IMG/VR virus record: IMGVR_UViG_3300043694_000018
Span: 1-64,000 of that record
Direction: 5' to 3' (one strand)
From: a virus
Taxonomy: Duplodnaviria > Caudoviricetes
Length of the DNA: 64,000 nucleotides
The notes beneath the pieces are model-generated. The model was not told the DNA's origin. It did no database searches and worked only from the letters and a program-made list of their open reading frames with translations. Positions 2,722 through 63,260 of the stretch are shown here, in pieces; positions within the stretch are counted from its first letter, which is position 1, and every line of letters begins with the position of its first letter. The position numbers were made by a program, and so were the translations under genes.

Positions 2722-2770
2722 CGCCAAATTCTTTCACGCCCTACATTGCGGACATCTGAAAGGAGATACC

Positions 2771-3181
2771 ATGGCCAAGAAGCCACCCGCCAAGAAGCCC
2801 GCCCGCAAGAACCCCGTCGAGGCCAAGGTCGACCACGCGCTCGGCATCGGCAGCAGCCGTCCCACCGAGCATCCCCTCATCGGCAAAGGCGTCCGCATCG
2901 AACACATCGACCCCGATCCCGGCATCACCTTCGGCGAGATCATGGCCATCATCGACTGCCCACCCGCCCAAGGCGACCTCGTCCTCATCGAGCGCGTCTA
3001 TCCCAACGCCGATCAGGACTCCTACCAGTTCGTCATCGCGCTGAGCGGCCTCGCCGATCCCCGCATCCGCCTGTTCAACGATCCCGACGACGCCATCGCC
3101 TACACCGAGGGAACACCAATGCCGCTGGCCGATGCGCCAGAGGGTGAAGGCCCAGACCATCTCGGCGAGCCCTCAAATTAG
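2771..3181 (+). CDS. Hypothetical protein with Lys/Pro-rich N-terminus
   Basis: AAGGAGA RBS, MAKKPPAKKPARK start, typical codon bias. Confidence 0.7.
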   Translation: MAKKPPAKKPARKNPVEAKVDHALGIGSSRPTEHPLIGKGVRIEHIDPDPGITFGEIMAIIDCPPAQGDLVLIERVYPNADQDSYQFVIALSGLADPRIRLFNDPDDAIAYTEGTPMPLADAPEGEGPDHLGEPSN

Positions 3182-3190
3182 GACATCACC

Positions 3191-3559
3191 ATGGAACTGA
3201 TCTCCTGCACCCGCGCCCTCCATCGCATGCTCTGCGCCGGACACGACACCGTCATCGTCCACATGAACCGCGAGAACGAGGAATACACCGGCACACCAAC
3301 CGGCGTCTTCGCCAAGACCAACACGCAGGCCCGCATCCCTCAACGCGGTGATCGCGGCGATGCAGCCATCGGATCGCGCGTACCCGATCCCAAGAACTCG
3401 GCCATGCGCCGCAACCAAGATGCCCATCGCCCAATCTCGTGGCGCGCCCACGACTTCATCCTCGGCTTCACCATCATCGAGCGATCCAAGGAGGTCACGA
3501 TCTACCTGCCCATCGATGAGGTCATCGCCATCACCGGAGTTCCCAATGCGCAGGGGTGA
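3191..3559 (+). CDS. Hypothetical protein
   Basis: ORF tightly packed in operon. Confidence 0.55.
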   Translation: MELISCTRALHRMLCAGHDTVIVHMNRENEEYTGTPTGVFAKTNTQARIPQRGDRGDAAIGSRVPDPKNSAMRRNQDAHRPISWRAHDFILGFTIIERSKEVTIYLPIDEVIAITGVPNAQG

Positions 3560-3725
3560 CTGGAAGATCATCCTGTTCATCTTCGCGCTCGGCCTCTCGT
3601 TCGTCGCGCTCATGACCGTGCGCGACGATCACGTCTTCCATACAGGCGGACAGACTCTCCCCGGCCTCGGCGAATCCCCCGGCCTCGGTGTCTCGCGCGG
3701 CCTCACCCAGCGCGAGTTCAAGTGA
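3546..3725 (+). CDS. Small membrane protein
   Basis: MRRGDWKIILFIFALGLSFVALM hydrophobic segment; stop overlaps next GTG. Confidence 0.55.
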   Translation: MRRGDWKIILFIFALGLSFVALMTVRDDHVFHTGGQTLPGLGESPGLGVSRGLTQREFK

Positions 3726-3895
3726 GCGACCCCCATGCCATCGAGTTCACCTGCATCGACTGCGGCACCCGCGTCTTCGCCATCGGATACCACCACGCCA
3801 ACGACGACCCCGTCTGCGCCACCTGCTCATGGCTGCGCGCCATCGAAGACCCCGATGAACGCGAGAAATTGCGAAAGTTCCTCAACCGAGACTGA
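3722..3895 (+). CDS. Small Zn-finger-like protein (57 aa, not in ORF track)
   Basis: Hand translation from GTGA overlap: MSDPHAIEFTCIDCGTRVFAIGYHHANDDPVCATCSWLR..., two CxxC pairs. Confidence 0.65.
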   Translation: MSDPHAIEFTCIDCGTRVFAIGYHHANDDPVCATCSWLRAIEDPDEREKLRKFLNRD

Positions 3896-4196
3896 ACCCA
3901 TCTACCGCCTCAGCCTCTACGAGGCCTGCGTCTACACCAACCTCGACCCCTACCTGCTCGGCATCCTCCTCGATGATTTCGGCCTCCCGCGTCACCACAT
4001 CCCCACCGACCAACTCGACGGCATCCTCCGCTTCCTCAACGCCAATATCCTCGGCGATCCCGTCATTTTCCGCCTCTGGGCCGAGTCCGGCTTCACCGCC
4101 TACAACCCCGCCGACCGCGCCGGTCGACCCGCCCATGGCGCTCACACGCTTGACAGTACCCCGCCCGCTGTGGCTCAAATCCGCTCCGATAGCTGA
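3855..4196 (+). CDS. Hypothetical protein
   Basis: 3' part of ORF 3735-4196 has normal protein composition; start uncertain. Confidence 0.45.
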   Translation: MNARNCESSSTETEPIYRLSLYEACVYTNLDPYLLGILLDDFGLPRHHIPTDQLDGILRFLNANILGDPVIFRLWAESGFTAYNPADRAGRPAHGAHTLDSTPPAVAQIRSDS

Positions 4197-4362
4197 GCGC
4201 GGCCCTTCAGGGCCTGAGATCGGATCGCTCAGCCACTCTCGCGGGGAGGCTCCGATGTGAATTTCAGACATTCCATTTTGCGGAGCCATGCCTTACGACC
4301 TGTCCTCTTTTCAGGGCATCAGGATACACAGGAGGTCCAACAGTCCCGCGAGACCAACAGCG

Positions 4363-4887
4363 ATGTTCGCTTGGCACGTCGCCATCACAAAACCTTTCTC
4401 CGAACTGATTGCTGAACGGCACCTCGAACAGCAAGACTTCCAGCCGTTCAATCCCAAGTGCCTCATCATGCGCATCGTCCGAAACCGGCGCATCTTCACC
4501 GAGAAACCCTACATCCCCGGATACATCTTCATCCGATTCGATGTCGACACCGACAACTGGCAGCGCGTCAACAACACCAAAGGCGTGCAGCAGTTGATCT
4601 ACTCGTCCCCCGAACGCCCCGCTTGGATTCGCGACGAGGTCATGCAAGTCCTCATCGACCGTTGCTCAGGCGGTCAGTACGTCGCCCCAGAGCACATCGA
4701 TCAGGCCATCTCCAAGCTCATCCCCATCGGCGCGCTCGTCCGCGTGGTCGACGGTCCCTTCGAGGGCATGCGCGCGCCCGTCCACTGGTCACACCACCAG
4801 CGCGTCTCCGTCCTCTTGTCCTTCCTCGGCGTCCCCCGCAAAATCGATCTCCCCGCCCGATCCGTCGAGGTCGTCGGTCGGGCCTAA
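4363..4887 (+). CDS. NusG/RfaH-family transcription elongation/antitermination factor (NGN + KOW)
   Basis: W.V..TKP..E..AERHL, KPYIPGYIFIRFD, V..TKGV..LI (NGN); G..VRVVDGPFEG..A.V and RVSVLLSFLG (KOW). Start may be 4288. Confidence 0.9.
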   Translation: MFAWHVAITKPFSELIAERHLEQQDFQPFNPKCLIMRIVRNRRIFTEKPYIPGYIFIRFDVDTDNWQRVNNTKGVQQLIYSSPERPAWIRDEVMQVLIDRCSGGQYVAPEHIDQAISKLIPIGALVRVVDGPFEGMRAPVHWSHHQRVSVLLSFLGVPRKIDLPARSVEVVGRA

Positions 4888-4907
4888 AGTAGCGCGCGAG
4901 TAGCCCC

Positions 4908-5375
4908 ATGGCGGCAGCAACCGCACAGGTCGTCAAACTCCCCAAGCCCAAGCGTGTGCCTTTACCCACGGGCAAAGGCTATCGCTACGGCGGGCGCGTC
5001 AAAGGCACACCGAACAAGACCGGCCAAGAGTTCCGCGCTGCCTGTGCTTCGTATTCCATGGAAGGATTGGCGCGGCTCATCTCGATGGGTCGACAAGATC
5101 AGGACCTGCGGCTCGCCTTCGATGCGTGGAAGTTCATCATCGAGCAAGCGCATGGTCGCGCACCGCAAGGCATCAACCTGCTCGGCGCTGCTGGTGAACC
5201 CCTCGATCTCGCGACATTGACCGATGCCCAACTCACCATCCTCATCGCCCGCTTCGAGCTTGCAGCTTCAAGCGCGGAAGTGGCTCCCGCAATTGAAGGC
5301 ACAGCAACAGAGGTTGCACCGGGAAGCGAAGCAGAGGGCGGACACGCTGGCGAGGTTGAACGAGATCAGGAGTAA
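4908..5375 (+). CDS. Putative terminase small subunit
   Basis: GGRVKGTPNKT motif, ..EQAHGRAPQ; immediately upstream of TerL. Confidence 0.65.
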   Translation: MAAATAQVVKLPKPKRVPLPTGKGYRYGGRVKGTPNKTGQEFRAACASYSMEGLARLISMGRQDQDLRLAFDAWKFIIEQAHGRAPQGINLLGAAGEPLDLATLTDAQLTILIARFELAASSAEVAPAIEGTATEVAPGSEAEGGHAGEVERDQE

Positions 5376-6849
5376 CAACCTGAAGTTCTACGGCTTCATC
5401 ACCGAAGCGTGGGACAAGCTCGAACCGACCGCGCCCTACAAACCGTCATGGCACCATCAGGCCATCGGCGAACACCTCGAAGCGGTGTGGCGCGGCGAGA
5501 TACAGCGCCTCATCATCAACCAGCCGCCCGGCACCATGAAGTCGCTCACCGTGAGCGTGCTGTTCCAAGCGTGGGAATGGGGGCCGATGAACACGCCCGG
5601 CCTGCGCTACCTCACCACGTCGTACCGCGAGGACTGGGCACGGCGCGACTCCCGCAAGACCCGCGATCTGATCCAGAGCGAATGGTATCAGACGCTCTAC
5701 CCCTACATCAGGCTGACGCGCGATGGCGAGACCGACTTCGAGAATACGTTCCTTGGGAATCGTAAAGCGGTTCCCTTCAAGTCTCTCACCGCCGGTCGCG
5801 GTAATCGGGTCATCGTGGACGACCCACACTCGACCGAACAGGCTGAGTCAGATGCAGATCGTGAAGTCGCGACGCGCGTCTTTCGTGAGTCCGTCACCTC
5901 ACGCCTCAACGACCCGGAGCGCGACTGCATCATCATCTGCATGCACCGGCTCCATCCTGACGATGTGTGCGGCGTCGTTGAACGTCTAGGCTTGCCCTAC
6001 GTCAAGCTCGTGCTGCCCATGGAGTACACGCGCTCGCTCGAAGTGCGCACGCCATGGTTCAAAGACCCGCGCACGATGGAGAATGAACTGCTGTGCCCCA
6101 ACCGCGTCGACCGCGACACGGTGGAGCAGAACAAGATCGAGCTTGGCCCGCACGCCTACGACACGCAGTACCAGCAACAGGCCAAGGCGCGCGAAGGCAG
6201 CTTCTTCTTCAACCCCGAACACTTCCTGATCAAGACCGAGGTCGATGGCCGTGAGACGTGGTCGCCCGCCGATACTCCTCCCATCTGTGACAACGTCTTC
6301 GCGGTCATCGACACCGCGAGCAAGGTCGGCAAGCTGCGCGACGGCACGGGCTGCATGTACTACGCCTACACCAAGTACCCGGAGGAACAGCTTCGCATCA
6401 TCGACTGGGACCTGATCCAGATCGAGGCCGCCATCCTCGAACACTGGCTGCCCAACGTGCTCACGCGCTGCGAGGAACTGGCGACGCAGTGCAACGCGCG
6501 CTACGGCACATCGGGCGCGTGGATCGAGGAGAAGGACTCGGGCATCGTGCTGTTGCAGCAAGCGTTCATGCGCGGCCTGCTGGCCCAGCCGATCCAGACC
6601 AAGCTCACGCAGATCGGCAAGGACGGCCGGGCGATGAGCGCGTCAGGCTACATCTACAAGGGCATGGTAAAAATCTGTCAGGCGGCCTACGACAAGGTCA
6701 ACAACTTCCATGGCCGCACGCGCAACCACGCTTGGTGGCAGATGACCAACTATCGAATCGGCCACTCGACGCCCACGGATGAGGACGAGCTTTTCGACTG
6801 CCTGTGCTACGGTGCGATCATCGCATGCGGCGACACACAGGGGTTCTGA
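5224..6849 (+). CDS. terL: Terminase large subunit
   Basis: WHHQAI..HLE, IINQPPGTMKS (Walker A region), GRGNRVIVDDPH (Walker B), nuclease IDTASK...D, terminal DE.FDC. Start uncertain (5224 ATG or 5260 TTG). Confidence 0.92.
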   Translation: MPNSPSSSPASSLQLQARKWLPQLKAQQQRLHREAKQRADTLARLNEIRSNNLKFYGFITEAWDKLEPTAPYKPSWHHQAIGEHLEAVWRGEIQRLIINQPPGTMKSLTVSVLFQAWEWGPMNTPGLRYLTTSYREDWARRDSRKTRDLIQSEWYQTLYPYIRLTRDGETDFENTFLGNRKAVPFKSLTAGRGNRVIVDDPHSTEQAESDADREVATRVFRESVTSRLNDPERDCIIICMHRLHPDDVCGVVERLGLPYVKLVLPMEYTRSLEVRTPWFKDPRTMENELLCPNRVDRDTVEQNKIELGPHAYDTQYQQQAKAREGSFFFNPEHFLIKTEVDGRETWSPADTPPICDNVFAVIDTASKVGKLRDGTGCMYYAYTKYPEEQLRIIDWDLIQIEAAILEHWLPNVLTRCEELATQCNARYGTSGAWIEEKDSGIVLLQQAFMRGLLAQPIQTKLTQIGKDGRAMSASGYIYKGMVKICQAAYDKVNNFHGRTRNHAWWQMTNYRIGHSTPTDEDELFDCLCYGAIIACGDTQGF

Positions 6850-8082: not shown

Positions 8083-8283
8083 ATGTACGAGCGCTCCGTC
8101 ATCCCCCATCCGGGGTTCCGCTTCTGGGCATCACGCGCGACGGTCCAGCAGGGCGTCGACATGGTCGAGGCCAACATCCGCGAGCAGAACATCGAGGTCG
8201 AGCCCGGCTATGACGCCGTGCTGATCACGATGTGCGCGCAGGCGCATGCGCTGTTCAAGATTGAACCTGCGGGGAACGCCTGA
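8083..8283 (+). CDS. Hypothetical protein
   Basis: AAGGAGG RBS; TGATG coupling to portal. Confidence 0.6.
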   Translation: MYERSVIPHPGFRFWASRATVQQGVDMVEANIREQNIEVEPGYDAVLITMCAQAHALFKIEPAGNA

Positions 8284-9929
8284 TGGCTGGCGAACTGAAG
8301 ATCACCAGTGCGATGGGCACTGCGCTCAGCGAACTGCTGACGCACAACGACGACATCCAGCCGGGTGCCGCGCTGAGCTACGACCTGTGCAAGAACATCT
8401 ACATTTTCCATCCGCTCGGCCGGAAGCTGGTCGAGAAGCCCATCGAGATCGCGCAGAGCCAGAAGCGCGAGGTCAGTGTGCCGAACTCGCCCGAGGAGCG
8501 CGTGAAGGAAGCGTTCGAGGATGAGTGGGAGCGGCTGCGCGTCGACACGCACATCATGAACCTCATGCGAATCGCGCGTGTATACGGCGTCGGCTCACTC
8601 GCTGTGGTTGAGGACGGCGTCGATGTGTCCAAGCCGCTCGACTACAACAAGGTCTACAAGGCGCAGATCGCGATCAACGCCTACGATCCGCTCAACACGG
8701 CGGGCTCGCTGGTGCTGCATCAGGACCCGCTGGCGATGGACTTCCAGCACGTCATGCAGATCGCGGTAAGCGGCCAGCCGTTCCATCGCACGCGCTCCAT
8801 CGTGCAGATGAACGAAGCGCCGATCTACATTCACTACACGGCGTCGGCCTACGGCTTCGTCGGCCGCAGCGTTTTCCAGCGCAGCCTGTTCCCGATGAAG
8901 TCGTTCCTGCGCACGATGGAGACCAACGATCTGGTGGCGACCAAGATCGGCGTGCTGGTGGCGAAGATCAAGCAGCCCGGCTCGATCATCAACAACGCGA
9001 TGATCAAGCTGTTCGGCCAGAAGCGTCAGGTAGTGAAGGAAGCGCAGACCGGCGGCGTGATCTCGATCAGCCCCGACGAGGCCATCGAGTCGCTGAACTT
9101 CCAGAACCTCGACGGGCCGATGGAGATCGTGCGCAAGTCGATCCTCGAAGACATCGCATCGGCGTGCGGCATGCCCGCGAAGATGCTGACCGAGGAGACG
9201 TTCGCCGAGGGATTTGGCGAGGGCACTGAAGACGCCAAGGCCATCGCCCGCTACATCGACGGCGTTCGGGAGGAGATGCAGCCGGTCTACGACTGGTTCG
9301 ACCGGCTGGTGATGTACCGGGCGTGGAACCCGGACTTCTACAAGACGATTCAGGCCGAGTACACGGAGTACGCCAACGTCGAGTTCGCGCAGGCGTTCTA
9401 CGAGTGGAAGAACAGCTTCACCACCAAGTGGCCATCGCTGCTCAAGGAGCCCGACAGCGAACTGGTCAAGGTGGACGAGGTCAAGCTGCGCGCGGTGCTG
9501 GCGTTCCTGCAACTGATGCTGCCGCAGGCCGACCCCGACAACAAAGCGCGGCTGATCGAATGGGCGGTCGACAACTTCAACAGCCTCAAGTTCCTGTTCG
9601 ATACGCCGCTCGAACTGGACTACGAGGAGTTGGCCAACTTCACGCCCGAGCCGCAGGTCATGCCCGGCATGGGCGCGCAGGGCGCACACGGTCCACCGGG
9701 CGGCGGCATGATGGGCGGTGGCAAGCCGGGCATGGGCGGCGGCGGTGGTGGCGGTGGCATGGGTGGCGGTGGCCAGAAGATGCAGGGCATGAGCTTCGGC
9801 AGCATGGCGCAGATGGGCCGCAGCCACGCCAACGACGCCGTCGACCGTCAGGTCGAGCAGTTCATGAGTGCAGTCGACCGCATGCTGGCGCGGCACAACA
9901 AGCCGCGCCTGCGCGTGGTCGAGAAGTGA
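8283..9929 (+). CDS. Portal protein (DUF1073-type) with Gly/Met-rich C-terminal tail
   Basis: Position after terL; ARVYG...L, IH.TR, ..IASACGMPAKML....AEGFGEGTEDA...Y...I motifs. Confidence 0.85.
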   Translation: MAGELKITSAMGTALSELLTHNDDIQPGAALSYDLCKNIYIFHPLGRKLVEKPIEIAQSQKREVSVPNSPEERVKEAFEDEWERLRVDTHIMNLMRIARVYGVGSLAVVEDGVDVSKPLDYNKVYKAQIAINAYDPLNTAGSLVLHQDPLAMDFQHVMQIAVSGQPFHRTRSIVQMNEAPIYIHYTASAYGFVGRSVFQRSLFPMKSFLRTMETNDLVATKIGVLVAKIKQPGSIINNAMIKLFGQKRQVVKEAQTGGVISISPDEAIESLNFQNLDGPMEIVRKSILEDIASACGMPAKMLTEETFAEGFGEGTEDAKAIARYIDGVREEMQPVYDWFDRLVMYRAWNPDFYKTIQAEYTEYANVEFAQAFYEWKNSFTTKWPSLLKEPDSELVKVDEVKLRAVLAFLQLMLPQADPDNKARLIEWAVDNFNSLKFLFDTPLELDYEELANFTPEPQVMPGMGAQGAHGPPGGGMMGGGKPGMGGGGGGGGMGGGGQKMQGMSFGSMAQMGRSHANDAVDRQVEQFMSAVDRMLARHNKPRLRVVEK

Positions 9930-12218: not shown

Positions 12219-15200
12219 ATGGACGGCCTCGATCTCGCTGCCGACAAGCTCGACGCGCTGATCGCCCGGCTCGACTTCGATCCCAACGAGCCGCGCGATT
12301 CGCGTGGCCAGTGGACAACAGGCGCAGGCAGCAAGAAGGTCAACTACAAGGATGCGACGACCATCGGCGGCAAGATGGTCGACTTCGTCGTCAACCCGAC
12401 GATGGGCATGATCCGCTCGATGGTGCGCCACTCGGAGATACCCGCGCAGGGGATTCGGGTGATGCGCGACGACAGCGGGCACGTCATCGCATGGGATGCC
12501 TTCCATGGCATCCACGAGCAGATGGCAAGCGCGCTGGGCCACGCGGACAACGTGATCAAGGCAGAGCGCTCACCGCACAGCGACGACCGCGACATCTACG
12601 CCGAGGACGGCAAGCCGTGGATCGACTTCATCTCGCTCAACGCTGAGGGCAAGTTCGAGAGCGCGTTCGGTGAGCCGAAGGACTGGGCGACGCCTGACGA
12701 TGGCGTGCGCGCTGACGACTTCGATCCGAGCGAACCGCGTGATGAGGCAGGCAAGTGGACATCGGGCGGTGGCGGCAAGCGAGTGAACGTCGAGGACATC
12801 GTCAAGCTGCGCGACTATCACGGCGGCAAGGAGGTCAACGTCGTCATCAATCCGACCAAGGCCAAGATCGCCGAGATGGTGCGCAAGGTGCCTGACCCGT
12901 TCGAGGCCGAGGACGCTGGCGTGAGAGTGGTGCGCGCGAACGACGGCACGGTCTACGCATGGGACCCGCGAGACGCGATCCACGACACGATGCTGCAAGC
13001 GCTCGAAGCGCAGGGCGTCGATGTGTCGAAGACGCGGCAGAACCTCAAGGGTCAGGATGTCATCTACTACCACCCGAACAGCGGTGAACTGCACTCGGTG
13101 ATGAGCGAGCCCGAGGACTGGTACGCCGACGAGCCCGCGCCAAAGAAGATCGCCAATAGCTGGACCTCGTACAAGACGCCGAGCGGTGTCGATGTCGATG
13201 TCGTTGTCAACCCGACGCCTGACAACATCGAGGACCTGTCGAAGGAGAACAAGTGGAACGGGCGGGTCAGGTTCGTGCGCGACACGGACGGCAACATCTA
13301 CGCCGCGAGCGCGAGCAAGGCGATCCACGATTCGATCATCGGCGCGCTGGGCCTCAGCGTGGCGGACAAGACGGTGAGCGACCGCCAGTGGAACCAGTTC
13401 ATCTACGACCCGAAGCACCAGAAGGTTGGCGATCTGGTGAAGTGGGGCTGGGTGGCCGCTGATGCGTTCGATCCTGATGAGCCGCGCGATCCACGCGGGC
13501 GATGGACAGCCGGGCAGCGCGGCTTCATGGATGAGTTTCACGCGGGCACCGAGGAGCACCCGCTCGGCATGCCGGATCGCTTGCGCTATCTGCCGCAGAA
13601 CGAAGGGCAGGAGCAGACCAACCTCGTCGCGCTGCACGTGTCGCCATGGCAGGACGGCATCCATGTCCACTCGATCTTTGCGCCGGAGCCGAGGCAGGGG
13701 CAGGGAACGGCCGGGTTGAAGTGGCTGCACGAACTCGCCGACAAGCACAACGTACCGCTCGATGGCTTCGCCAAGGCCTACGGCGAGGGCGGCATGTCGA
13801 CGGCGCGGCTGAAGAAGTGGTACGCCAAGCACGGCTGGAAGGTGCAGCGCAGCGGCTCGATGAAGCGCCTGCCGCGTGGCAGCGCTGCTGACGACTATGA
13901 CCCGAGCGAACCGAGAGACGAATCGGGCAAGTGGACTGGGGGCGGTGGCGCGGGCAAGAAGCCCGAGGAGGATCGGTCAGGCCCGGAGTTCCACGAGCCC
14001 GAGGACATCCAGCGCGCGTTCGAGAACTACACGGGCAACGACATCACGCCGATGGATGCCGACTATGCGGGCACCGAGGGCGGCATCGGCTTCCTCGGCC
14101 CTGACGGCACGATGTGGAACATCGAGGGCAGCCACGCAGGCACGTCGCTGCGGCTCAACAAGGACCTGTGGGACATCTTCGAGGCGGGTTATCACCGCAT
14201 CTACGCCACGCCCGGCGACATGCTGGGCATCGAGGTCAACAACGAGAAGCCGCTGACGCCACAGCAGGTCAAGTTCGTGATCGACGCGGCGAGCCACGAG
14301 AAGTTCAAGAGCCTGTACATCGAGGGACAAGGCCACTTCTTCGGCAGGACGGGCAGCGACAAGTTCGAGCCGCCCGAGGGTGTGAACGCCAAGAACGCGC
14401 GGCGATACCTACGACAGCAGGGCATGATCGCGGCCGACGACGATGTGCTCGACGCCGCCGCCGACCGGCTCGATGCGCTGCTGACACGCTTGGACTGGGA
14501 GGAGAGTCAGCACCCGCGCGTGCCCGAGGGATCGAGCAAGGGCGGCCAGTTCACCAAGGGCGCGGGTGGCGCACCGGCCGAGGGCGAGAAGCCGAACGAA
14601 CTGGAGAAGCTGGTCGGCGAGTTCAAGAGCGTTGGCGAGCCGAAGGGCGAGCCCACGCCGTCGCAGATGTCGATCAGGCGCGTGATGCGCCGCCTCGGCG
14701 AGGCCGAGGAGATGATGAAGGAGGCGCGCGAGGTCGGGAACGAGGAGATGATCCCGCGCCTGCGCGAGGAGATCGGCAAGTTCCGCAAGCGCAAGCGTGA
14801 ACTGGACAAGATCGAGCACGACCGCGAGCGCGCAGAGCAGCAGGAGAAGTGGGACGACGCGCGCTCATACGACCGCACGCAGGCCGCCGTCGTGTTCATC
14901 GATGAGAAGGTGCAGGAACTGGTCAACTCCGGCGAGTGGCAGAAGCTCGATGACAAGGCGCGCATGGACAAGCGCGGCGAGTTCGAGTTGCAGTTCCTCG
15001 ACAAGGAGCCACCGCGCACCAAGCTCGACTATCTGGAGCAGGGCAAGCTGCTGACGCTGTGGGAGCGCGCTGACGACGAGACCAAGGAGGACGCCAAGAA
15101 CATCTTCATCCAAGAGAAGATGGATGCCCTCTATAAAGGGCAGGAGGTTCAGGACTTCGACAAGCACGAGGAGGCGAAGCAAAAGGCTTCGGCCGAGTTC

Positions 15201-17783
15201 GATGCGATGTCGCCGCGCGTGCGGCACACCTATCTGGAGAAGGCCGAGGCCAACCTGCCGAAGTCGTGGGACGAGCTTGGCGACGAACAGCAGGAGCAGG
15301 CGAAGGCGCGCTACGTGCGCAACAACCTGAAGCGTGCGGTCAACGAGGAGACATCGTACTGGCGCGAGCAGGGCGGCAACCTCGATGACGCCAAGCACAA
15401 GCTGGTGGGCGAGTTCAACGAGTACGATTCGACCATGCCGGAGTGGTTCGAGGAGGCGATGTCGGATGTCAACGAGCATCGGCTCCACACCGATCCACCG
15501 CATCCGCCGATCCCGTACACCAACGAGCAACTGTGGAAGGCGATCTCGCTCAGCTACGAGGGCGACGGTGCTGGCGGTGGCCCGCTCCGCGTCGAGTTCC
15601 TTGACGAGAACCTGCGCCATCCGAAGGACTACGATTCCAAGCAGCAGACGCTACCCGGCATCGAGCCCGAAGACCCGTCGAAGCGACTGACGCAGGAGAT
15701 GCGCGACGCGCTGGAGGTGCAGATCACCGACGCCTTCGACGCGCAGGCCGACAAGGATCAATACTCGGTGGAGCCCGACTACAACATGCTGGAGGAGAAC
15801 GCAGCGGAGCGGGTCAACATCGAGTGGGACGACCTCAATGATGACCAGAAGTTCGCGATGTTCCAAGGCCGCAAGCAGAAGCTCGGCATGCAGACCGAGA
15901 TGCGCGGCAAGACCGAGTGGCGCTATGTGCCGTTCACCGCCAAGGCGTGGAACCCCGGCGACCTGCCAGAGGGCGAATCGTACAGCGTCGAGACCGCCGT
16001 CGACCCGGATGCCCACGACATCGAGGACGTGATGCGGCACAGCCAGCGCGGCGTGATCCGGCTGGCGCGCATGAACGACGGCAAGACATACGTGTGGGAC
16101 GCCACGACCGTCACGCATCCCGAGATGATTCCCGAGCTTGGCTACAGCTACCCGGAGGACGTTGACGACACCGAGGTCGCGTGGGGCATGAGCGGCGTGC
16201 GCTACCTGCTGAACAACTGGGCACGCCACGACAGCCAGAGCCCGCGCATCGCCGCCGACGCGGTGTACCTGAAGTGGAACGACTCGATCATCCCGCCGCC
16301 GGGCTATCGCTTCCAGAGTTGGGTAGCGCGCGCCGACGCCTTCAACCCCAACGAACCGCGCGATCCGCAGGGGCGCTGGACCGAGGGCGGTGGCACGCTC
16401 TACCACGTCACGCACAGCCGCTACGGTGGCAGCATCAAGAAGAAGGGCATCGTGCCGTTGGGCGGCGAGGGCTCGAACTGGGTGAAGGGCACGGAGGAAG
16501 GCGAGCGCTACGGCGCTGGCGAGGTCTACGCCTTCGAGCACAAGGACGACGCGATTCGCTGGGCCGCGAAGATGGACTGGTCGTTCAACAAGGGCGACAG
16601 CGGCAAGGGCAAGATCAGCATCGTCCACATCAAGGGCCAGCAGGGCGACAAGTGGCTGGTCGATGAGTCTGATCCGCTCAGTCAGGCGACGGCCAAGGGC
16701 AAGTGGCTGAAGCGGCTCGACCCGGTCGACCGCAAGCGCATCGCCAAGGTCGAGCCTGTCACCAACGACATGGTGCGCGACATGCTCGCGCGCGAGCGCG
16801 CCGAGACACCGAAGGCGAAGGAAGCGCCCGGTTGGAGCTTCCCTGATGACGAGAACAAGTTCTGGAACGCCATACCGGGGATACTGAGCGGGCACGTCCA
16901 CAGCGAAGGGCCGTGGTTCGTCGCCGAAGGCGAGGGCTACAAGATCAAGTACAGCCGCCTCACCGACAACTGGACCGTCTCCGATCCGAAGAACGACAGC
17001 AACAAGTGGGCTGAGGGCATCGGCGTCTACAACCTGATGCAGTTCCTGAAGGACGACCCGAAGATCGGCAAGAAGGCGCAGGCGTGGATCGACAAGGACA
17101 AGCAGGAGCACGCCGCCACGCTGGCCGAAAAGCTCAAGCACTTCCGCTCGACCGCTGAGGAGATGGGCAAGCGCGCCAACTTCGATACGTCGAAGATCAA
17201 GTTCGGGGAGGTCGCGCCCGACTACGTGCTGAACGGCAGGCACTTCAAGGCGGCCGGTGTCGCCAACCTCGGCAGCGGCGAGATCACGCTCTACCCCGGT
17301 GCGGAGTCGAGCGAGGAGTTCTTCCGGGGCGTGGTGGCGCACGAGATGGAGCACCAAAAGTTCCAGTTCTTCCTCGATGAGCAGAGCCGCGAACTGGAGG
17401 AGATCATCAAGCTGCCCAAGCCCGAGCGGCGGCGCGATGACCCGATGAAGCCGGACGGCACGCTGCGCACACCCGAGCTTCGCGAGAAGTACCCGGCCTA
17501 CTCGGCCTACACCGAGATCATCGGCAAGCACTACGACGAACTGAAGGAGGAGGACGGCGTCACCAAGTACAGCCGCGAATGGTGGCAGGCCTACAACAAC
17601 AAGACGGCCAACATCGAGCAGGCGTGGCACGAGACGATGGCCGAGATCGCCTTCCTGATGCACAAGGACGAGGAGGGCTCGAAGGTCAGTCGCAACTGGA
17701 ACAAGCTGTTCAACACCGTCAATCAAATCTGGAACGACCGCCACACGCAGGGCATGCGCACGTCGGGAGTGCCCGGCCCATGA
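12219..17783 (+). CDS. Giant modular (polyvalent) head-associated protein: 6 leader repeats, GNAT, ART-like, HExxH zincin, 4x unknown domain
   Basis: 1854-aa ORF with strong codon bias; motifs detailed in findings. Confidence 0.85.
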   Translation: MDGLDLAADKLDALIARLDFDPNEPRDSRGQWTTGAGSKKVNYKDATTIGGKMVDFVVNPTMGMIRSMVRHSEIPAQGIRVMRDDSGHVIAWDAFHGIHEQMASALGHADNVIKAERSPHSDDRDIYAEDGKPWIDFISLNAEGKFESAFGEPKDWATPDDGVRADDFDPSEPRDEAGKWTSGGGGKRVNVEDIVKLRDYHGGKEVNVVINPTKAKIAEMVRKVPDPFEAEDAGVRVVRANDGTVYAWDPRDAIHDTMLQALEAQGVDVSKTRQNLKGQDVIYYHPNSGELHSVMSEPEDWYADEPAPKKIANSWTSYKTPSGVDVDVVVNPTPDNIEDLSKENKWNGRVRFVRDTDGNIYAASASKAIHDSIIGALGLSVADKTVSDRQWNQFIYDPKHQKVGDLVKWGWVAADAFDPDEPRDPRGRWTAGQRGFMDEFHAGTEEHPLGMPDRLRYLPQNEGQEQTNLVALHVSPWQDGIHVHSIFAPEPRQGQGTAGLKWLHELADKHNVPLDGFAKAYGEGGMSTARLKKWYAKHGWKVQRSGSMKRLPRGSAADDYDPSEPRDESGKWTGGGGAGKKPEEDRSGPEFHEPEDIQRAFENYTGNDITPMDADYAGTEGGIGFLGPDGTMWNIEGSHAGTSLRLNKDLWDIFEAGYHRIYATPGDMLGIEVNNEKPLTPQQVKFVIDAASHEKFKSLYIEGQGHFFGRTGSDKFEPPEGVNAKNARRYLRQQGMIAADDDVLDAAADRLDALLTRLDWEESQHPRVPEGSSKGGQFTKGAGGAPAEGEKPNELEKLVGEFKSVGEPKGEPTPSQMSIRRVMRRLGEAEEMMKEAREVGNEEMIPRLREEIGKFRKRKRELDKIEHDRERAEQQEKWDDARSYDRTQAAVVFIDEKVQELVNSGEWQKLDDKARMDKRGEFELQFLDKEPPRTKLDYLEQGKLLTLWERADDETKEDAKNIFIQEKMDALYKGQEVQDFDKHEEAKQKASAEFDAMSPRVRHTYLEKAEANLPKSWDELGDEQQEQAKARYVRNNLKRAVNEETSYWREQGGNLDDAKHKLVGEFNEYDSTMPEWFEEAMSDVNEHRLHTDPPHPPIPYTNEQLWKAISLSYEGDGAGGGPLRVEFLDENLRHPKDYDSKQQTLPGIEPEDPSKRLTQEMRDALEVQITDAFDAQADKDQYSVEPDYNMLEENAAERVNIEWDDLNDDQKFAMFQGRKQKLGMQTEMRGKTEWRYVPFTAKAWNPGDLPEGESYSVETAVDPDAHDIEDVMRHSQRGVIRLARMNDGKTYVWDATTVTHPEMIPELGYSYPEDVDDTEVAWGMSGVRYLLNNWARHDSQSPRIAADAVYLKWNDSIIPPPGYRFQSWVARADAFNPNEPRDPQGRWTEGGGTLYHVTHSRYGGSIKKKGIVPLGGEGSNWVKGTEEGERYGAGEVYAFEHKDDAIRWAAKMDWSFNKGDSGKGKISIVHIKGQQGDKWLVDESDPLSQATAKGKWLKRLDPVDRKRIAKVEPVTNDMVRDMLARERAETPKAKEAPGWSFPDDENKFWNAIPGILSGHVHSEGPWFVAEGEGYKIKYSRLTDNWTVSDPKNDSNKWAEGIGVYNLMQFLKDDPKIGKKAQAWIDKDKQEHAATLAEKLKHFRSTAEEMGKRANFDTSKIKFGEVAPDYVLNGRHFKAAGVANLGSGEITLYPGAESSEEFFRGVVAHEMEHQKFQFFLDEQSRELEEIIKLPKPERRRDDPMKPDGTLRTPELREKYPAYSAYTEIIGKHYDELKEEDGVTKYSREWWQAYNNKTANIEQAWHETMAEIAFLMHKDEEGSKVSRNWNKLFNTVNQIWNDRHTQGMRTSGVPGP
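15126..15141. promoter_or_regulatory. Palindromic site GCCCT-CTATAA-AGGGC (intragenic)
   Basis: Perfect match to genome-wide motif. Confidence 0.65.
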
Positions 17784-23576: not shown

Positions 23577-23674
23577 CGGGTGCGGGCGCTCATCGCCCGC
23601 TTCACCCCGAATCTGGATTTATGCCCATGGGCATAAAATGAAGAAACCGCCCGAAAGTGAACCGAGGAGCCGCC

Positions 23675-29160: not shown

Positions 29161-29331
29161 ATGTCACTCGGTCTCGCGTTCTGGATTTTGATGTTGATCT
29201 GGCTGGTCTTCGGCTTCGCGTGGCACTGGGGCGTGATGGGGCCATACGGCCCGTGGGGCTTCAGCCTCCTGCTGTTCATCCTGCTGGCGCTGCTCGGCTG
29301 GCACGCCTTCGGCCCGCCGTTGCACGGCTGA
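29161..29331 (+). CDS. Small two-TM membrane protein (56 aa)
   Basis: Hand translation: MSLGLAFWILMLIWLVFGFAWHWGVMGPYGPWGFSLLLFILLALLGWHAFGPPLHG; GAGG RBS. Confidence 0.7.
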   Translation: MSLGLAFWILMLIWLVFGFAWHWGVMGPYGPWGFSLLLFILLALLGWHAFGPPLHG

Positions 29332-29355
29332 TCGCAGGAGGCCTATAAAGCGGGC

Positions 29356-50944: not shown

Positions 50945-51292
50945 TCAGTGCGTCACCCCCGCCGCTTCTTCCTCAAGGTCGTCGTAGCCGCCCAGCGCCT
51001 CGAACATCGGGTGAGCGATCATCGTGCCGTACAGGCGGCTGATGTCCCGGCGCAGCGGTACGACCATGGCGACCGGGATGTCGATCTCCTCGCCCGGCTT
51101 CACGGCGTGGAGCTTCTGCGCCAGCAGGTAGCGGCGGCGGTGCTCCAGTTCGGTGCGTGGCGGCTGCTGGGGATCGCCCGGCTGGACGCAGGCGTTGATG
51201 AGCACGACCCGCACGGTCCACGTCGTCTTGCCGTCCGGCGTGATCATCGGCCGCTGATCGAAATCGACCAGCACCTTGTCGGTCAGCTTCAT
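50945..51292 (-). CDS. Hypothetical protein
   Basis: GAAGG RBS; codon bias. Confidence 0.65.
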   Translation of the reverse strand: MKLTDKVLVDFDQRPMITPDGKTTWTVRVVLINACVQPGDPQQPPRTELEHRRRYLLAQKLHAVKPGEEIDIPVAMVVPLRRDISRLYGTMIAHPMFEALGGYDDLEEEAAGVTH

Positions 51293-51642
51293 GCGCTCAC
51301 CTTCAGTTCGTTCATGACCTCGATGACCTCGGCCCGCCGTTCCTTCGCCCGGTCGATGCGCTCATCGATGTGCTCCAGAACGCGCGGCCAGAGATCAGGC
51401 TGGATCACGGTTTCGAGGCCGTCCCAGCGGCGCACGGTGCGCAGGTTCACGGCGACGGCGCGGCCCATCTCGGACTTCCAGCGCTTGCCGTAGAGGGCAC
51501 GACCGACGCGCTCCAGCAGGCGGCGGTAGCGAACGGCTTCCTTCTTCGTGGGAGGATGCTCCCTGAAATCACGTGGTCGCTGCTTGCTCATGGATGCCCT
51601 AATATCAGGCTGCCCGCTTTCGGTAAACAGCATCATGGTCAT
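51289..51642 (-). CDS. Putative HTH DNA-binding protein
   Basis: GRALYG.RW.SEMGRAVAVNLRTVRRW helix-turn-helix-like pattern; start uncertain. Confidence 0.6.
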   Translation of the reverse strand: MTMMLFTESGQPDIRASMSKQRPRDFREHPPTKKEAVRYRRLLERVGRALYGKRWKSEMGRAVAVNLRTVRRWDGLETVIQPDLWPRVLEHIDERIDRAKERRAEVIEVMNELKVSA

Positions 51643-53889: not shown

Positions 53890-53905
53890 GCCCTCAATTT
53901 AGGGC
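53890..53905. promoter_or_regulatory. Palindromic site GCCCT-CAATTT-AGGGC
   Basis: Intergenic, upstream of early gene. Confidence 0.8.
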
Positions 53906-53933
53906 GTGACCGGGAGAACTACAAGCCCTCTCG

Positions 53934-55665: not shown

Positions 55666-55723
55666 TGAAGTGGTAGTTCCTGTGTTTGCTCCGGCTGCCG
55701 GGATGGTCCCGCCGGGCACCACA

Positions 55724-55752
55724 GAGATAGGCTCACTGAAAAAGTTTTGCAA
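55724..55752 (-). promoter_or_regulatory. Sigma70-like early promoter TTGCAA-N17-TATCTC
   Basis: One of three near-identical promoter boxes. Confidence 0.6.
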
Positions 55753-55761: not shown

Positions 55762-55804
55762 GCCCTTTTTTGAGGGCCTATGGATTGTGCCCTATTTTGC
55801 GGGC
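55762..55804. promoter_or_regulatory. Tandem palindromic sites (GCCCT-TTTTTG-AGGGC and variant GCCCT-ATTTTG-CGGGC)
   Basis: Just upstream of the -35 of the DUF932 promoter. Confidence 0.8.
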
Positions 55805-56392: not shown

Positions 56393-56808
56393 GCCAGCAC
56401 CGCGCCCTGTTCGAGGTCGTAGTTCTCCAGCAACCGCCGGGCGGCGTCGATCTGGTCGGGCCGCATCTCCTCGGCAGCGCGCCGGTCGTTGGCGACCCAG
56501 CGCACGAAGCCCAGCACGTGCCCGGCAAGATCGGGCGACTGGACGCGCCAGTGCTTGAGGTCGTAGCGGCCCACGTACTCCAGCCCATCGGCGAACACGA
56601 CCTTGAAGTCGTGCTTGTCGTACCCGCCGCCGGTCGGCGCGGTGCGGCTGTTCGTGCGCAGCGTGTTGTTGGCGTCAGTCCAGCCCCGGCAGACCTGCAC
56701 GATGCCGCACTCGCTGGCGAGGCCTTCGACGCGCGTGATCTCGATGCGCACCGGGCGGATAAGCTCGCGGTACACCTTGCCGTCCACGCCCTGATAGGTC
56801 GCGCTCAT
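56389..56808 (-). CDS. Hypothetical protein
   Basis: AAGGGGG RBS; GGYDK.DF.V.F.DG..Y.GR.DL motif. Confidence 0.65.
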   Translation of the reverse strand: MSATYQGVDGKVYRELIRPVRIEITRVEGLASECGIVQVCRGWTDANNTLRTNSRTAPTGGGYDKHDFKVVFADGLEYVGRYDLKHWRVQSPDLAGHVLGFVRWVANDRRAAEEMRPDQIDAARRLLENYDLEQGAVLA

Positions 56809-56984
56809 GCGGCCCCCTTGGCGAAGCGGTACTCGCGCTCGGCCCACTGGTCGAGCTTGCTGAGCTTGTCCTTGTACTCGGACTCGCTCAGCTTGCCCGC
56901 CATGTACTGGGCGTCGATGGCGTCAGTGGTGCGCTCGACGGCGCGCTCGATCTGGTCCTCGGTCATGATGGTGTTCGTTCTCAT
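56805..56984 (-). CDS. Small helical protein (59 aa, not in ORF track)
   Basis: Hand translation: MRTNTIMTEDQIERAVERTTDAIDAQYMAGKLSESEYKDKLSKLDQWAEREYRFAKGAA. Confidence 0.65.
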   Translation of the reverse strand: MRTNTIMTEDQIERAVERTTDAIDAQYMAGKLSESEYKDKLSKLDQWAEREYRFAKGAA

Positions 56985-57000
56985 GCCCTCAATTTAGGGC
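56985..57000. promoter_or_regulatory. Palindromic site GCCCT-CAATTT-AGGGC
   Basis: Abuts ATG 56984. Confidence 0.8.
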
Positions 57001-57562: not shown

Positions 57563-57843
57563 GCGTTGTTGCTTGAGCCTCCACCGTTTGAACGCTTGCG
57601 CGCGAGCACCCTGCTCCGCGCCCGGACGCAGGGCGCGCACATGCAGGAGTCGAGCGTCTTGTAGAAGATCGAGGCTGCATGCCACGCCGGGCACTCCTCG
57701 CGCAGGGCGATGGCGGCGATCTGGCCCACGTCATCCGGGCGCTTGACCCGGATGGAGGCTCGCACGATGCCTTCCCACTGCTGGATTGTGAACCTATGGC
57801 GTCCCACTACACTCTCCCCATGTCCCCTTTGTAGGGCATGCAA
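57559..57843 (-). CDS. Hypothetical Cys-containing protein
   Basis: ATGA overlap; start uncertain. Confidence 0.4.
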   Translation of the reverse strand: MHALQRGHGESVVGRHRFTIQQWEGIVRASIRVKRPDDVGQIAAIALREECPAWHAASIFYKTLDSCMCAPCVRARSRVLARKRSNGGGSSNNA

Positions 57844-57924
57844 TCTGCGATTGACAAGGATGGAATTGTCCGACTGCGGCGCTCAGGTATTACCCCCAAA
57901 GCGCTCTTGCCTAACCTTTCGGGA

Positions 57925-59094: not shown

Positions 59095-59114
59095 ACGCCC
59101 TAAATTTAGGGCGT
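59095..59114. promoter_or_regulatory. Perfect 20-bp palindrome ACGCCCTAAATTTAGGGCGT
   Basis: Upstream of the ACACAGGAG leader of gene 58746-59072. Confidence 0.8.
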
Positions 59115-59366
59115 GGCCTTCCCGTTTTCAAGGGCCGCCGCACGCTCGGCCTTGCTCGGATAGATCACGCGCTGGCGGCGGAACACGCGCTTCTGCGGCT
59201 CCGGCTCAGGCGTGCTCGGCCCATAGGGCGCGACGCCCGGCGGCAGGTTGTGGTTGATGATGGCGAGGTTGGCCGCCTCGACGGCGGCCTCGGCGAGCTT
59301 CAGCGCATCGTGCGCCCGGCGCAGGCAGGCGTAGGCCTTCACCAGCAGGTCGTGCCGTTCACTCAC
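59106..59366 (-). CDS. Hypothetical protein
   Basis: GTG overlap. Confidence 0.55.
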   Translation of the reverse strand: MSERHDLLVKAYACLRRAHDALKLAEAAVEAANLAIINHNLPPGVAPYGPSTPEPEPQKRVFRRQRVIYPSKAERAAALENGKATP

Positions 59367-59844: not shown

Positions 59845-59857
59845 GATGATCTCCTGT

Positions 59858-59883
59858 GTCACGCCCTAAATAGAGGGCGTGAC
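59858..59883. promoter_or_regulatory. Extended palindrome GTCACGCCCT-AAATAG-AGGGCGTGAC
   Basis: Intergenic. Confidence 0.8.
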
Positions 59884-59900
59884 GTTCGGGGTTCAAGGGT

Positions 59901-60554: not shown

Positions 60555-60637
60555 TCTGGGGTGATGCCGGGGCTCGACCCGGCGGCTGCATTTCCTAGGC
60601 CGTCCCCGACACTCCGGGGTGCTTCGCCCTCCCCACC

Positions 60638-60682
60638 AAGATGGGGATGCTGAAAGATTTTTGCAAGCCCTAAAAAGAGGAC
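60638..60682 (-). promoter_or_regulatory. Sigma70-like early promoter TTGCAA-N17-CATCTT abutting variant palindrome GCCCT-AAAAAG-AGGAC
   Basis: Sequence match to the other two copies. Confidence 0.6.
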
Positions 60683-61216: not shown

Positions 61217-61224
61217 TGCGGGGG

Positions 61225-62187: not shown

Positions 62188-62224
62188 ATGGTCCTGTGTT
62201 TCCGGGCCACGGCGGCCCACCACA

Positions 62225-62252
62225 GAGATGGGGATTTGCAAAAAATTTGCAA
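62225..62252 (-). promoter_or_regulatory. Sigma70-like early promoter TTGCAA-N16-CATCTC
   Basis: Sequence match to the other two copies. Confidence 0.55.
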
Positions 62253-62274
62253 GCCCCCGATCTCGATTTCATAT

Positions 62275-62324
62275 GCCCTGCAATTAGGGCATGGTGGTTA
62301 TTGCACAGGCCCTGAAATTAGGGC
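62275..62324. promoter_or_regulatory. Two palindromic sites (62275-62290, 62309-62324)
   Basis: Upstream of the promoter at 62225-62252. Confidence 0.8.
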
Positions 62325-62855
62325 ACGCTCCAGCCCGGCCTTGGACCGGCGCAGCTTGCGCAGGGCGTTCTCGGCCCGGCGGGCCTTGGCCTCCCATCGC
62401 TCGATCCGGGCGGTGACGCTCAGCAGCTTGAGCGCGCGGACCTCGGCCTTGTCGGGCTTCGGCTTCGGCTCAGGCTTGGCCTTCGGCAGATGCCAGCCCT
62501 TCCTGACCACGTAGTCGACCATCGCCTTCTCCAGCGCCGCGTGGACGTGGGAGTGCGTCAGCTTGCCGGGGTGCATGACCTCGAACAGGTAGTGGCTGCA
62601 ATCGTGAACCATGCGGCCGAGACCGTTGTGCCCGCCGTTGGCGTAGCGCTTCGTGTCCTGCGGCTTGGTGTTCGCCCAGCACCGCCGACCCCGGCGGAAC
62701 CATGACGGCATCCGCAGGTAGATCGGGTCAATGTCCGGGTGCTTGGCGAACTTCGCGAACAGCTTGGCTGCCAGCGGCACGACCTCGGCCTTGGTGATCG
62801 GGGGGAGGATCGCTCCTCCCCACGCCGCGCCCACGTCGTCGTAGCTCACGGTCAT
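62298..62855 (-). CDS. Hypothetical protein
   Basis: GGAGG RBS; HD.SH...H..H pattern, possibly metal-binding. Confidence 0.6.
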   Translation of the reverse strand: MTVSYDDVGAAWGGAILPPITKAEVVPLAAKLFAKFAKHPDIDPIYLRMPSWFRRGRRCWANTKPQDTKRYANGGHNGLGRMVHDCSHYLFEVMHPGKLTHSHVHAALEKAMVDYVVRKGWHLPKAKPEPKPKPDKAEVRALKLLSVTARIERWEAKARRAENALRKLRRSKAGLERALISGPVQ

Positions 62856-63181
62856 GCGAGCCTCCGACCCTTGGCGCTGATGCGCGCCCAGTCCGACATC
62901 GAGACGCTTTGCTCGGCCCCGCCGTCGTGCAGCCAGATCAGCCGGGAGCCGGTCTCATCCTCGGCGACCCAGACGCGGCGGATGCCGCTGCCCAGTCGAC
63001 GGAGGTAGTGGTCGGTGTTCGCGATGAAGACCTCCCAACGCTCGGCGTCTTCGTAGCGCTCGCCCTCGGGCCTGCGCGCCTTGAAGCGCTTGCGCCGGGG
63101 CTTCACCTCCACCGGCTTCTGATCTCTCGACCGCCGCAGGAACGCGGGGATCGCGAGATCGTCATCACTCATCAACAACAT
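62852..63181 (-). CDS. Hypothetical protein with DDLAIPAFLRR motif
   Basis: ACACAGGAG leader. Confidence 0.65.
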   Translation of the reverse strand: MLLMSDDDLAIPAFLRRSRDQKPVEVKPRRKRFKARRPEGERYEDAERWEVFIANTDHYLRRLGSGIRRVWVAEDETGSRLIWLHDGGAEQSVSMSDWARISAKGRRLA

Positions 63182-63244
63182 TCGACTTCTCCTGTGTTCA
63201 ATCGAATGAAAGATTTTAGCACAGGAGGAAGCAAAAGTCGAGAC

Positions 63245-63260
63245 GCCCTATTTTGAGGGC
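63245..63260. promoter_or_regulatory. Palindromic site GCCCT-ATTTTG-AGGGC
   Basis: Overlaps stop of 63248 gene, upstream of next gene. Confidence 0.75.

Follow-up and report, generated by a model that had tools for sequence, protein, structure and literature searches.

The window analysed here comprises bases 1–64,000 of a 79,317-bp virus record (IMG/VR IMGVR_UViG_3300043694_000018, 64.9% GC, G000 below) from an uncultivated tailed phage. It carries repeated copies of a 16-bp palindrome, GCCCT-N6-AGGGC, which is a real, conserved and selected regulatory DNA element. On balance we favour its being a promoter-embedded DNA operator for a dimeric phage regulator, most likely the helix-turn-helix (HTH) protein encoded at 51289–51591; we infer the binding itself, as well as whether it represses or activates and what the copies located inside genes do. 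The distinctive features of the system are half-sites flanking the −10 hexamer exactly, the involvement of many predicted transcription units and codon-costly intragenic copies.

Copy number, geometry and conservation of the palindrome

The window contains 14 perfect copies, each where the first-pass annotation of this DNA had located it, while dinucleotide shuffles gave 0.12 on average and never more than 1. The whole 79,317-bp genome contains 16, the two others lying beyond the window at 65481 and 74433. When up to one mismatch was allowed, 23 matches were obtained in the window compared to 3.6 expected. The seven variants already annotated were all present, with one mismatch at 3169, 4302, 55789 and 60667 and two at 2738, 29340 and 57822. 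That manual scan had been presented as possibly incomplete, and indeed it had missed variants at 51596, 68815, 76342, 76640, 78584, 78643 and 78934 and an N7 form at 71604, all of them beyond the window except 51596. The perfect copy at 65481 lies in an FkbM-family methyltransferase gene of the early arm (genome 64630–65625, minus strand; 4630–5625 in locus L011).

The spacing of the arms is strict. Among GCCCT-Nk-AGGGC arrangements scanned for k from 0 to 30, 16 copies were found at k = 6 and 0–1 at each other k, and no enrichment of direct or everted arm arrangements was observed alongside. Eight other GC-rich 5-mer palindromes with an AT-rich N6 gave zero perfect copies, and GCCCT-N6 was the sole outlier among all 5-mer palindromes. 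The N6 spacer is AT-rich in every case, and symmetric AT flanks lengthen the dyad to 20 bp, AT-GCCCT-[AT-rich N6]-AGGGC-AT (duplex form ATGCCCTAAATTTAGGGCAT). With this exclusive 5-N6-5 layout, the half-site centres are 11 bp apart; dyad symmetry and a fixed half-site spacing of about one helical turn are as in HTH operators of the Cro/CI/XRE type. Chance and codon bias as sources of the motif are ruled out by the shuffles, by the controls with other spacings and other arms, and by the synonymous resampling described below.

Relatives, all uncultivated, were collected by protein searches: G001, a syntenic 77.6-kb IMG/VR genome whose conserved genes are 67–80% identical at the nucleotide level; G002, a 66.6-kb record of a more distant relative; L043, a 20.7-kb locus of a 57-kb record; and two fragments, L013 and L020. 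Counts of the core CCCT-N6(AT-rich)-AGGG were 16 in G000, 6 in G001, 5 in G002 and 4 in the 20-kb L043 locus, and essentially zero at other spacings. In about 70 loci of more distant relatives it was absent or present as a single copy. Loss of the motif in related phages, named in the first-pass annotation as part of the grounds for abandoning its proposal, is not what we see, the core being kept in G001, G002, L013, L020 and L043.

In these relatives the core reads RCCCT-N6-AGGGY and is located at orthologous promoters. Orthologous sites were recognized after gene 62298–62855, upstream of an RfaH-like gene, upstream of gene 62852–63181 and at the leaderless promoter of gene 29356–29940; across G001, L013, L020, G002 and L043 these sites retain their arms, whereas the spacers and flanks have changed. 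Ahead of the RfaH-like gene, the site reads GTCCT...AGGGC in three genomes, with a near-variant in L020 and G002. The outer base pair is G..C in G000, G001 and L013, and G002 and L043 mix A or G with C or T (A..C, which breaks pairing, three times and G..T once). The half-sites thus vary independently, which fits half-site recognition and not base pairing.

A second palindrome of G002, CGGCG-N7-CGCCG (14 copies), was considered as an analogous element and rejected as compositional, with GC-rich spacers and a location in coding sequence. No near-identical phage was found among GenBank phages, bacterial genomes searched for prophage relatives gave one distant match only, and a literature search for the palindrome motif returned nothing relevant.

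Copies embedded in promoters or placed beside them

Read on the transcribed strand, many copies wrap the −10 hexamer, as GCCC-TAAATT-nAGGGC (class 1). In the intergenic form of the minus arm, a −35 box (cTTGAAA-like) is followed by 13 nt, GCCC, TAAATT, nAGGGC and A, so that the AT-rich spacer plus the inner T constitute the −10 hexamer, with 17 bp between it and the −35 box. At promoters of this spacing the site spans −16 to −1, the core-promoter overlap known for HTH operators. The base after AGGGC is mostly A and, seven bases past the hexamer, is the predicted +1. The first-pass annotation had noted the AT-rich spacer and described many copies as lying just upstream of early −35 boxes or ribosome-binding sites (RBS). 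This holds for a minority which lie upstream of −35 boxes; most intergenic copies instead enclose the −10 box, with the −35 box 17 bp upstream of the hexamer, and recognition of the spacer as the −10 hexamer itself changes the anatomy of the site.

To quantify this association, a simple −35 score was computed 16–18 bp upstream of motif base T5, taken as −12, for 69 sites with at most two mismatches in G000 and G001. Strong −35 boxes were found for 15 of the 69 in the sense orientation and for 2 in the antisense orientation, compared to 3% of random positions. An independent consensus promoter scan finds two of the promoters, at 59131–59103 and 57019–56991. The class 1 copies of the window, together with two variants close to a start codon (3169 and 51596), are as follows.

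53890–53905, minus strand: perfect palindrome; −10 TAAATT; −35 TTGTAG at 53924–53919, 17-bp spacer; RBS ACACAGGAG and ATG about 22 nt downstream
56985–57000, minus strand: perfect palindrome; −10 TAAATT; −35 TTGAAA at 57019–57014; abuts the ATG of open reading frame (ORF) 56805–56984
59097–59112, minus strand: perfect, fully symmetric palindrome GCCCTAAATTTAGGGC; −10 TAAATT; −35 TTGAAA at 59131–59126
59863–59878, minus strand: perfect palindrome; −35 TTGAAC at 59896–59891; RBS and GTG start directly downstream
57822–57837, minus strand: two-mismatch copy; −10 TACAAA; −35 TTGTCA at 57857–57852
2738–2753, plus strand: two-mismatch copy; −10 TACATT; −35 TTGACG at 2718–2723
3169–3184, plus strand: one-mismatch copy; ends 6 nt before the ATG of gene 3191–3559
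29340–29355, plus strand: two-mismatch copy; −10 TATAAA; −35 TTGCAC at 29320–29325; abuts the ATG of gene 29356–29940; the orthologous site at G001 8171 is likewise leaderless
51596–51611, minus strand: variant AGCCTGATATTAGGGC; its end lies 4 nt short of the HTH gene's ATG; an identical variant precedes the G001 orthologue

The ATG directly abuts the palindrome at ORF 56805–56984, at gene 29356–29940 and its G001 orthologue (8171), at ORF 76656–76865 (site 76640) and at the G001 HTH gene. With their ATG at the predicted +1, these genes would give leaderless mRNAs; near-leaderless cases were found at 51596, 68815, 3169 and the N7 form 71604. The leaderless-looking starts are at 56982–56984 and 29356 in the window and at 76656, 74432 and 71603 in the genome. 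Several apparently leaderless genes hint at a host in which leaderless translation is common.

A second class of copies is located on, against or a few bp upstream of TTGCAA −35 boxes, often as tandem pairs: site 60667 abuts the box, and others lie upstream of it, by 9 bp for 55762/55789, 22 bp for 62275/62309 and 11 bp for 76342. The pair at 62275 is kept in G001 (36497/36544), with a spacing of 34 versus 47 bp, and in G002 a single perfect copy (27681) occupies the corresponding position. In the G001 orthologue 36497, the −35 box lies within the palindrome spacer. These and two further sites of the window are as follows.

55762–55804, minus strand: tandem pair, 55762 perfect and 55789 with one mismatch; 9 bp upstream of the TTGCAA −35 at 55752–55747, promoter of a DUF932 gene
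62275–62324, minus strand: tandem perfect pair at the 3′ end of gene 62298–62855; upstream of the TTGCAA −35 at 62252–62247
63245–63260, minus strand: perfect copy overlapping the stop codon of ORF 63248–63520; just upstream of the TCGACT-17-TAAAAT promoter of gene 62852–63181; orthologous site at L043 7442
60667–60682, minus strand: one-mismatch copy, GTCCT...AGGGC on the minus strand; directly abuts the TTGCAA −35 at 60666–60661
4302–4317, plus strand: variant GTCCT-N6-AGGGC that precedes the RfaH-like gene and late operon; without a −35 box

The site at 4302 may be a late promoter or operator. Its arms are kept in G001 and L013, nearly so in L020, and read GCCCT-GATTTT-AGGAT in G002; the spacers differ. 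Downstream of the TTGCAA promoters we also observed a conserved minus-strand leader, (T/C)ATCT(C/T)-(t)GTGGTGGG, at 60631–60646, 62216–62233 and 55717–55729 and in G001. At 60631–60646, as in G001, it forms a CCCCA...TGGGG hairpin. This leader may hold the −10 box together with a structure of the 5′ untranslated region.

A rival reading dispenses with a dedicated repressor. The GC arms could be an intrinsic part of the promoter, a GC-clamped TAAATT −10 core read by the host RNA polymerase, possibly phage-modified, or a symmetric and potentially bidirectional core; late and intragenic copies lacking a −35 box would then be activator- or factor-dependent promoters. The −35 box at 17 bp, the A at +1 and the leaderless ATGs show the spacer working as a −10 element, and a −35 box is missing from the conserved site that precedes the RfaH-like late operon. 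The consensus TAAATTTA could moreover be read as a double −10 on both strands, with starts 18 bp apart. In G002 and L043, where TTGACA, TTGCAA or TTGTAA is found at 17 bp, most copies are promoter-embedded (3/5 and 5/6 shown, respectively). However, no known sigma-70 contact, to our knowledge, explains a conserved GCCC at −16 to −13 mirroring the discriminator. The −35 boxes lie almost solely on the sense side (15 versus 2 of 69), which makes true bidirectionality unlikely, and TTGCAA promoters without clamps nevertheless have separate palindromes upstream. Nor was a phage sigma factor or RNA polymerase detected among the phage proteins. Taken together, we consider a purely intrinsic promoter architecture unlikely.

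Two candidates for such functions were rejected: protein 62298–62855 as a sigma factor, suggested by its C-terminal ALRKLR, had no Pfam, PHROG or NCBIfam support, and a 1854-aa ORF gave no matches to RNA polymerase. A search of the ESM Atlas structure database with protein 62852–63181 returned nothing usable.

Copies inside late genes and the hairpin alternative

As read from third-position GC, plus-strand genes extend from 76890 through the record end to 48055 and comprise replication genes, an RfaH-like gene and structural genes, and minus-strand genes extend from 48052 to 76294, nearly all without a family match. The phage encodes a large terminase (5224–6849), a portal (8283–9929), a baseplate wedge protein and a tape-measure-like protein. 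Six perfect copies lie inside late genes (class 3), one of them (19914) in the final codons of its ORF.

15126–15141, plus strand: perfect copy in the 1854-aa ORF; rare codons TAT, AAA, GGG
19914–19929, plus strand: perfect copy in the last codons of ORF 17579–19954, 37 nt before the ATG at 19951; rare codons CCT, AGA, AGG, GCA
20613–20628, plus strand: perfect copy coding PYIKG; kept in G001 (76259), for which protein constraint could account
25583–25598, plus strand: perfect copy; rare codons CTA, AAA, GCA, GGG; in G001 the same amino acids without the motif
33497–33512, plus strand: perfect copy about 50 nt after the gene start; absent in G001
38637–38652, plus strand: perfect copy; CTA, TCT, TTA, GGG (fractions 0.02, 0.01, 0.00, 0.12); absent in G001

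These copies are spelled with codons used at 0.00–0.12 of their synonymous family (CTA 0.02, TTA 0.00, TCT 0.01, AGA 0.01, AAA 0.06). Resampling of synonymous codons over 31 kb of late genes yielded a mean of 0.27 copies and at most 2, compared to the 6 observed. The G001 orthologues at 25583 and 38637 code for identical or near-identical residues with common codons and lack the motif; of the intragenic copies compared, that at 20613 alone is common to G001. The rare codons, the excess over resampling and the same residues encoded in G001 without the motif argue for selection on the DNA sequence itself.

Several genes around these copies are worth mentioning. The 1854-aa ORF (12219–17783, plus strand) is located between the portal region and the protease; it matched neither PHROG nor Pfam and corresponds to one 2034-aa ORF in G001. 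ORF 17579–19954, which comes next, has a weak GNAT acetyltransferase match. It is followed by a 654-aa protein (19951–21915, plus strand) with an N-terminal Nudix hydrolase domain fused to a prohead-protease/portal-associated region (phrog_6216, E = 7e-137).

A different explanation takes the palindrome for a hairpin, formed in RNA or in the non-template strand. It could be an antitermination signal of boxB-like or LoaP/RfaH type, for recruitment or pausing, read possibly by the RfaH-like protein 4363–4887 or by an N-like arginine-rich protein; or it could be an element for mRNA processing or stability. Six copies along the 45-kb late operon, despite their rare-codon cost, are compatible with this, as are arms (GCCCU/AGGGC) identical to the lambda boxB stem and a predicted folding energy of −8 to −15 kcal/mol. 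On the sense strand, G-U pairing could accommodate several of the single-mismatch variants, and the phage does encode an RfaH-like NusG paralogue (TIGR01955, E = 4e-23).

Other features do not correspond to such a signal. The loops are 6 nt long and unconserved (for instance AAAUUG, CAAAAA, CUAUUU and AGAAAC), in contrast to the conserved GNRA-like pentaloop of lambda nut sites. Rather than lying in a transcribed leader next to a boxA, promoter-embedded copies are upstream of their own predicted start and so outside that transcript; no boxA-like flank, nor any flank beyond AT, is conserved, and no homologue of N was identified. Pairing is lost in most variant arms (CGGGC, GGGAC, AGCCT and the outer A..C), which show no compensatory changes. 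U-tracts are lacking: terminator-like matches numbered 8 compared to 6.9 in shuffles, and among the palindromes the search for intrinsic terminators flagged 62272–62293 alone. The canonical ops element of RfaH is absent, since GGCGGTAGnnTG had no perfect match and five one-mismatch occurrences for 4.5 expected. The RfaH-like gene is conserved far beyond the motif-bearing clade, and its product was rejected as the motif reader on co-distribution, the gene being present in many relatives without the motif. The boxB-type RNA signal put forward as an alternative in the first-pass annotation is thus weakened, and we hold a hairpin function of any of these kinds to be very unlikely.

The element could also serve two uses without being a repressor site, as a GC-clamped symmetric −10 core at promoters and, through its −10-like centre, as a programmed pause or loading site for the RfaH-like NusG paralogue in the 45-kb late operon. 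If this were true, recruitment or re-recruitment of the RfaH-like protein through a non-template-strand or RNA hairpin would explain the rare-codon copies in late genes; we give this combination little credence.

The RfaH-like NusG paralogue (4363–4887, plus strand), with both NGN and KOW domains, is conserved in many related uncultivated phages; here its gene immediately precedes the terminase gene and the 45-kb late operon. Another hairpin, GGCCCTTCAGGGCC, is located upstream of its gene at 4201–4214.

The candidate regulator and the proposed operator regulon

A dimeric regulator acting at an operator had been proposed in the first-pass annotation, with an HTH gene delimited as 51289–51642 as a candidate. 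As a general reading it is the best supported, by the strict dyad, the fixed spacing, the core-promoter overlap and the HTH fold with its co-occurrence. The gene has been re-delimited:

51289–51591, minus strand: candidate regulator, a 100-aa Cro/YdaS/XRE-type HTH protein, as judged by the domain matches of its relatives and its predicted fold

The protein has no direct Pfam match. A profile search collected 2,425 relatives, and among 61 aligned relatives the domain matches were YdaS (30), HTH_3 (16) and Aca2/YdiL (8). AlphaFold2, run on the 61-sequence alignment, predicted a helix-turn-helix followed by a long C-terminal helix with a predicted local distance difference test (pLDDT) score of 95. 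The best Foldseek matches were XRE regulators, Aca10/Aca2, restriction-modification controller proteins, P22 c2 and TP901-1 CI.

Homologues are encoded in G001, G002 and L043 and in none of the loci of the other relatives fetched; the motif-bearing fragments L013 and L020 stop short of the region. A palindrome promoter precedes the gene in each case: 4 nt before the ATG in G000, as a tandem pair abutting the ATG in G001, 24 nt upstream in L043 and about 195 nt upstream in G002. The recognition helix reads NLRTVRRW in genomes with an outer operator base G and DPRTVRSW or NPRTVRGW in genomes with A. This difference appears to track the outer base, a suggestive correlation based on a single contrast. 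The protein is thus a reasonable candidate binder of the palindrome.

Other readers of the site have been envisaged. A host protein, or a phage DNA-binding system not devoted to transcription (partition, nucleoid organisation, packaging), for example the ParB/Noc-like HTH protein 75488–76294, could use copies dispersed genome-wide, coding regions included. This protein has a weak Noc HTH match, and the half-site ATGCCC recurs in a 20-bp palindrome, TTTATGCCCATGGGCATAAA, present in its gene and in an exact 53-bp copy. Yet the gene is unique to G000 and absent from the motif-bearing G001 and G002, on which ground the protein was rejected as reader, and the close alignment with −35, −10 and +1 speaks for a role in transcription. 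A partition-like or host-factor role is therefore highly doubtful. The 53-bp duplicate itself (window 23608–23660 and genome 75995–76047, or 15995–16047 in L011) holds the perfect palindrome TTTATGCCCATGGGCATAAA, with the ATGCCC half-site and a 2-bp spacer; one copy is inside gene 75488–76294 and the other directly follows the capsid gene. The ParB/Noc-like protein may use this sequence as a parS-like site.

Symmetry extending to the AT flanks, strict spacing, independent half-sites and palindromes at the −35 of unclamped promoters favour a symmetric DNA-binding dimer. The operators would be built into, or set beside, phage sigma-70-type promoters. In class 1 (cTTGnnn, a 17-bp spacer ending in GCCC, TAnaTT, nAGGGC and A at +1), a dimer on the site would occupy positions −16 to −1 and shut out RNA polymerase. 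In class 2, it would overlap the TTGCAA −35 box, touch it or sit a few bp upstream, often in tandem; G001 36497, with the −35 box in its spacer, and 60667, abutting its −35 box, are in repressive positions. Copies of class 3, inside late genes, could act as a roadblock or as auxiliary, looping or reservoir sites. Since the regulator gene starts right after a palindrome promoter, autoregulation and a coordinated shut-off of many transcription units are predicted; such a shut-off could represent an early-to-late switch or lysogenic silencing.

Several points weigh against this operator model. The GC arms around the −10 could be an intrinsic promoter feature, the geometry also fitting a symmetric bidirectional core with starts 18 bp apart, and hairpins of 5–7 bp are thermodynamically plausible in the energy range given above. 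For a repressor that works by occluding promoters, the six copies within late genes serve no obvious purpose. Foldseek E-values are weak (>0.1), with aligned-domain probabilities consistently at 0.8–0.98. The link between HTH protein and operator is a co-occurrence within one clade, effectively one evolutionary event, and the palindrome could instead be bound by another of the small, uncharacterised early proteins or by a host factor.

Compared with known systems, the presumed operator regulon resembles the autorepressors of Cro/CI and Aca type (lambda Cro, P22 c2, TP901-1 CI, Aca2) in its dyad of about 16–20 bp with fixed spacing and an AT-rich centre, in the core-promoter overlap and in the small XRE-fold HTH gene behind such a promoter. 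It differs by about 25–35 sites over 79 kb instead of 2–6 in one control region, by arms flanking the −10 hexamer exactly and by the copies that late genes also hold. Dispersed phage operators are known in the P1 C1 operators, the stoperators of mycobacteriophages L5 and Bxb1 and the conserved inverted repeats of phiC31. As in P1, L5 and phiC31, one regulator would serve many genome-wide sites, at promoters and within transcription units. The sites of P1 and L5 lack symmetry, and stoperators depend on orientation and lie between genes; the present sites are symmetric, at many promoters form the −10 region itself and also occur in coding sequence with rare codons. In particular, mycobacteriophage stoperators are asymmetric 13-bp, orientation-specific sites in short intergenic regions, unlike this symmetric palindrome with six intragenic copies. 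An N4-type hairpin promoter for a virion RNA polymerase does not fit either: −35 boxes are present and none of the large ORFs showed an RNA polymerase domain, although a very divergent one could escape detection. By the features tested, the palindrome belongs neither to the lambda nut sites nor to the terminators, stoperators or N4-type hairpin promoters.

A parallel in distribution is found in Cluster O mycobacteriophages, whose 17-bp dyad repeat TGTTCGGNNNCCGAACA has an AT-rich centre and more than 30 genome-wide copies, both intergenic and intragenic (PMC4351075). Its authors proposed that a dimeric protein binds the repeat, but found most Corndog sites away from promoters and thought a transcriptional role unlikely (PMC4351075). 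Similarities with the present element include enrichment in the leftward non-structural arm and leaderless promoters in the same genomes (PMC4351075). The layouts differ, 7-N3-7 versus 5-N6-5, and the palindrome described here has a strong oriented association with −35, −10 and +1.

This is most likely a familiar type of control circuit, extended over the whole genome with unusual tidiness. It provides a compact regulatory map for a clade of uncultivated, high-GC phages of about 57–79 kb, whose early genes are nearly all without known function, and names likely promoters, start points, several leaderless genes and one candidate master regulator. Operator half-sites clamping the −10 exactly would be a clean natural design for switching many promoters together. 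With its codon-costly intragenic copies, this phage joins the few (P1, L5, phiC31, Cluster O) that carry genome-wide operator-like sites whose non-promoter copies are unexplained.

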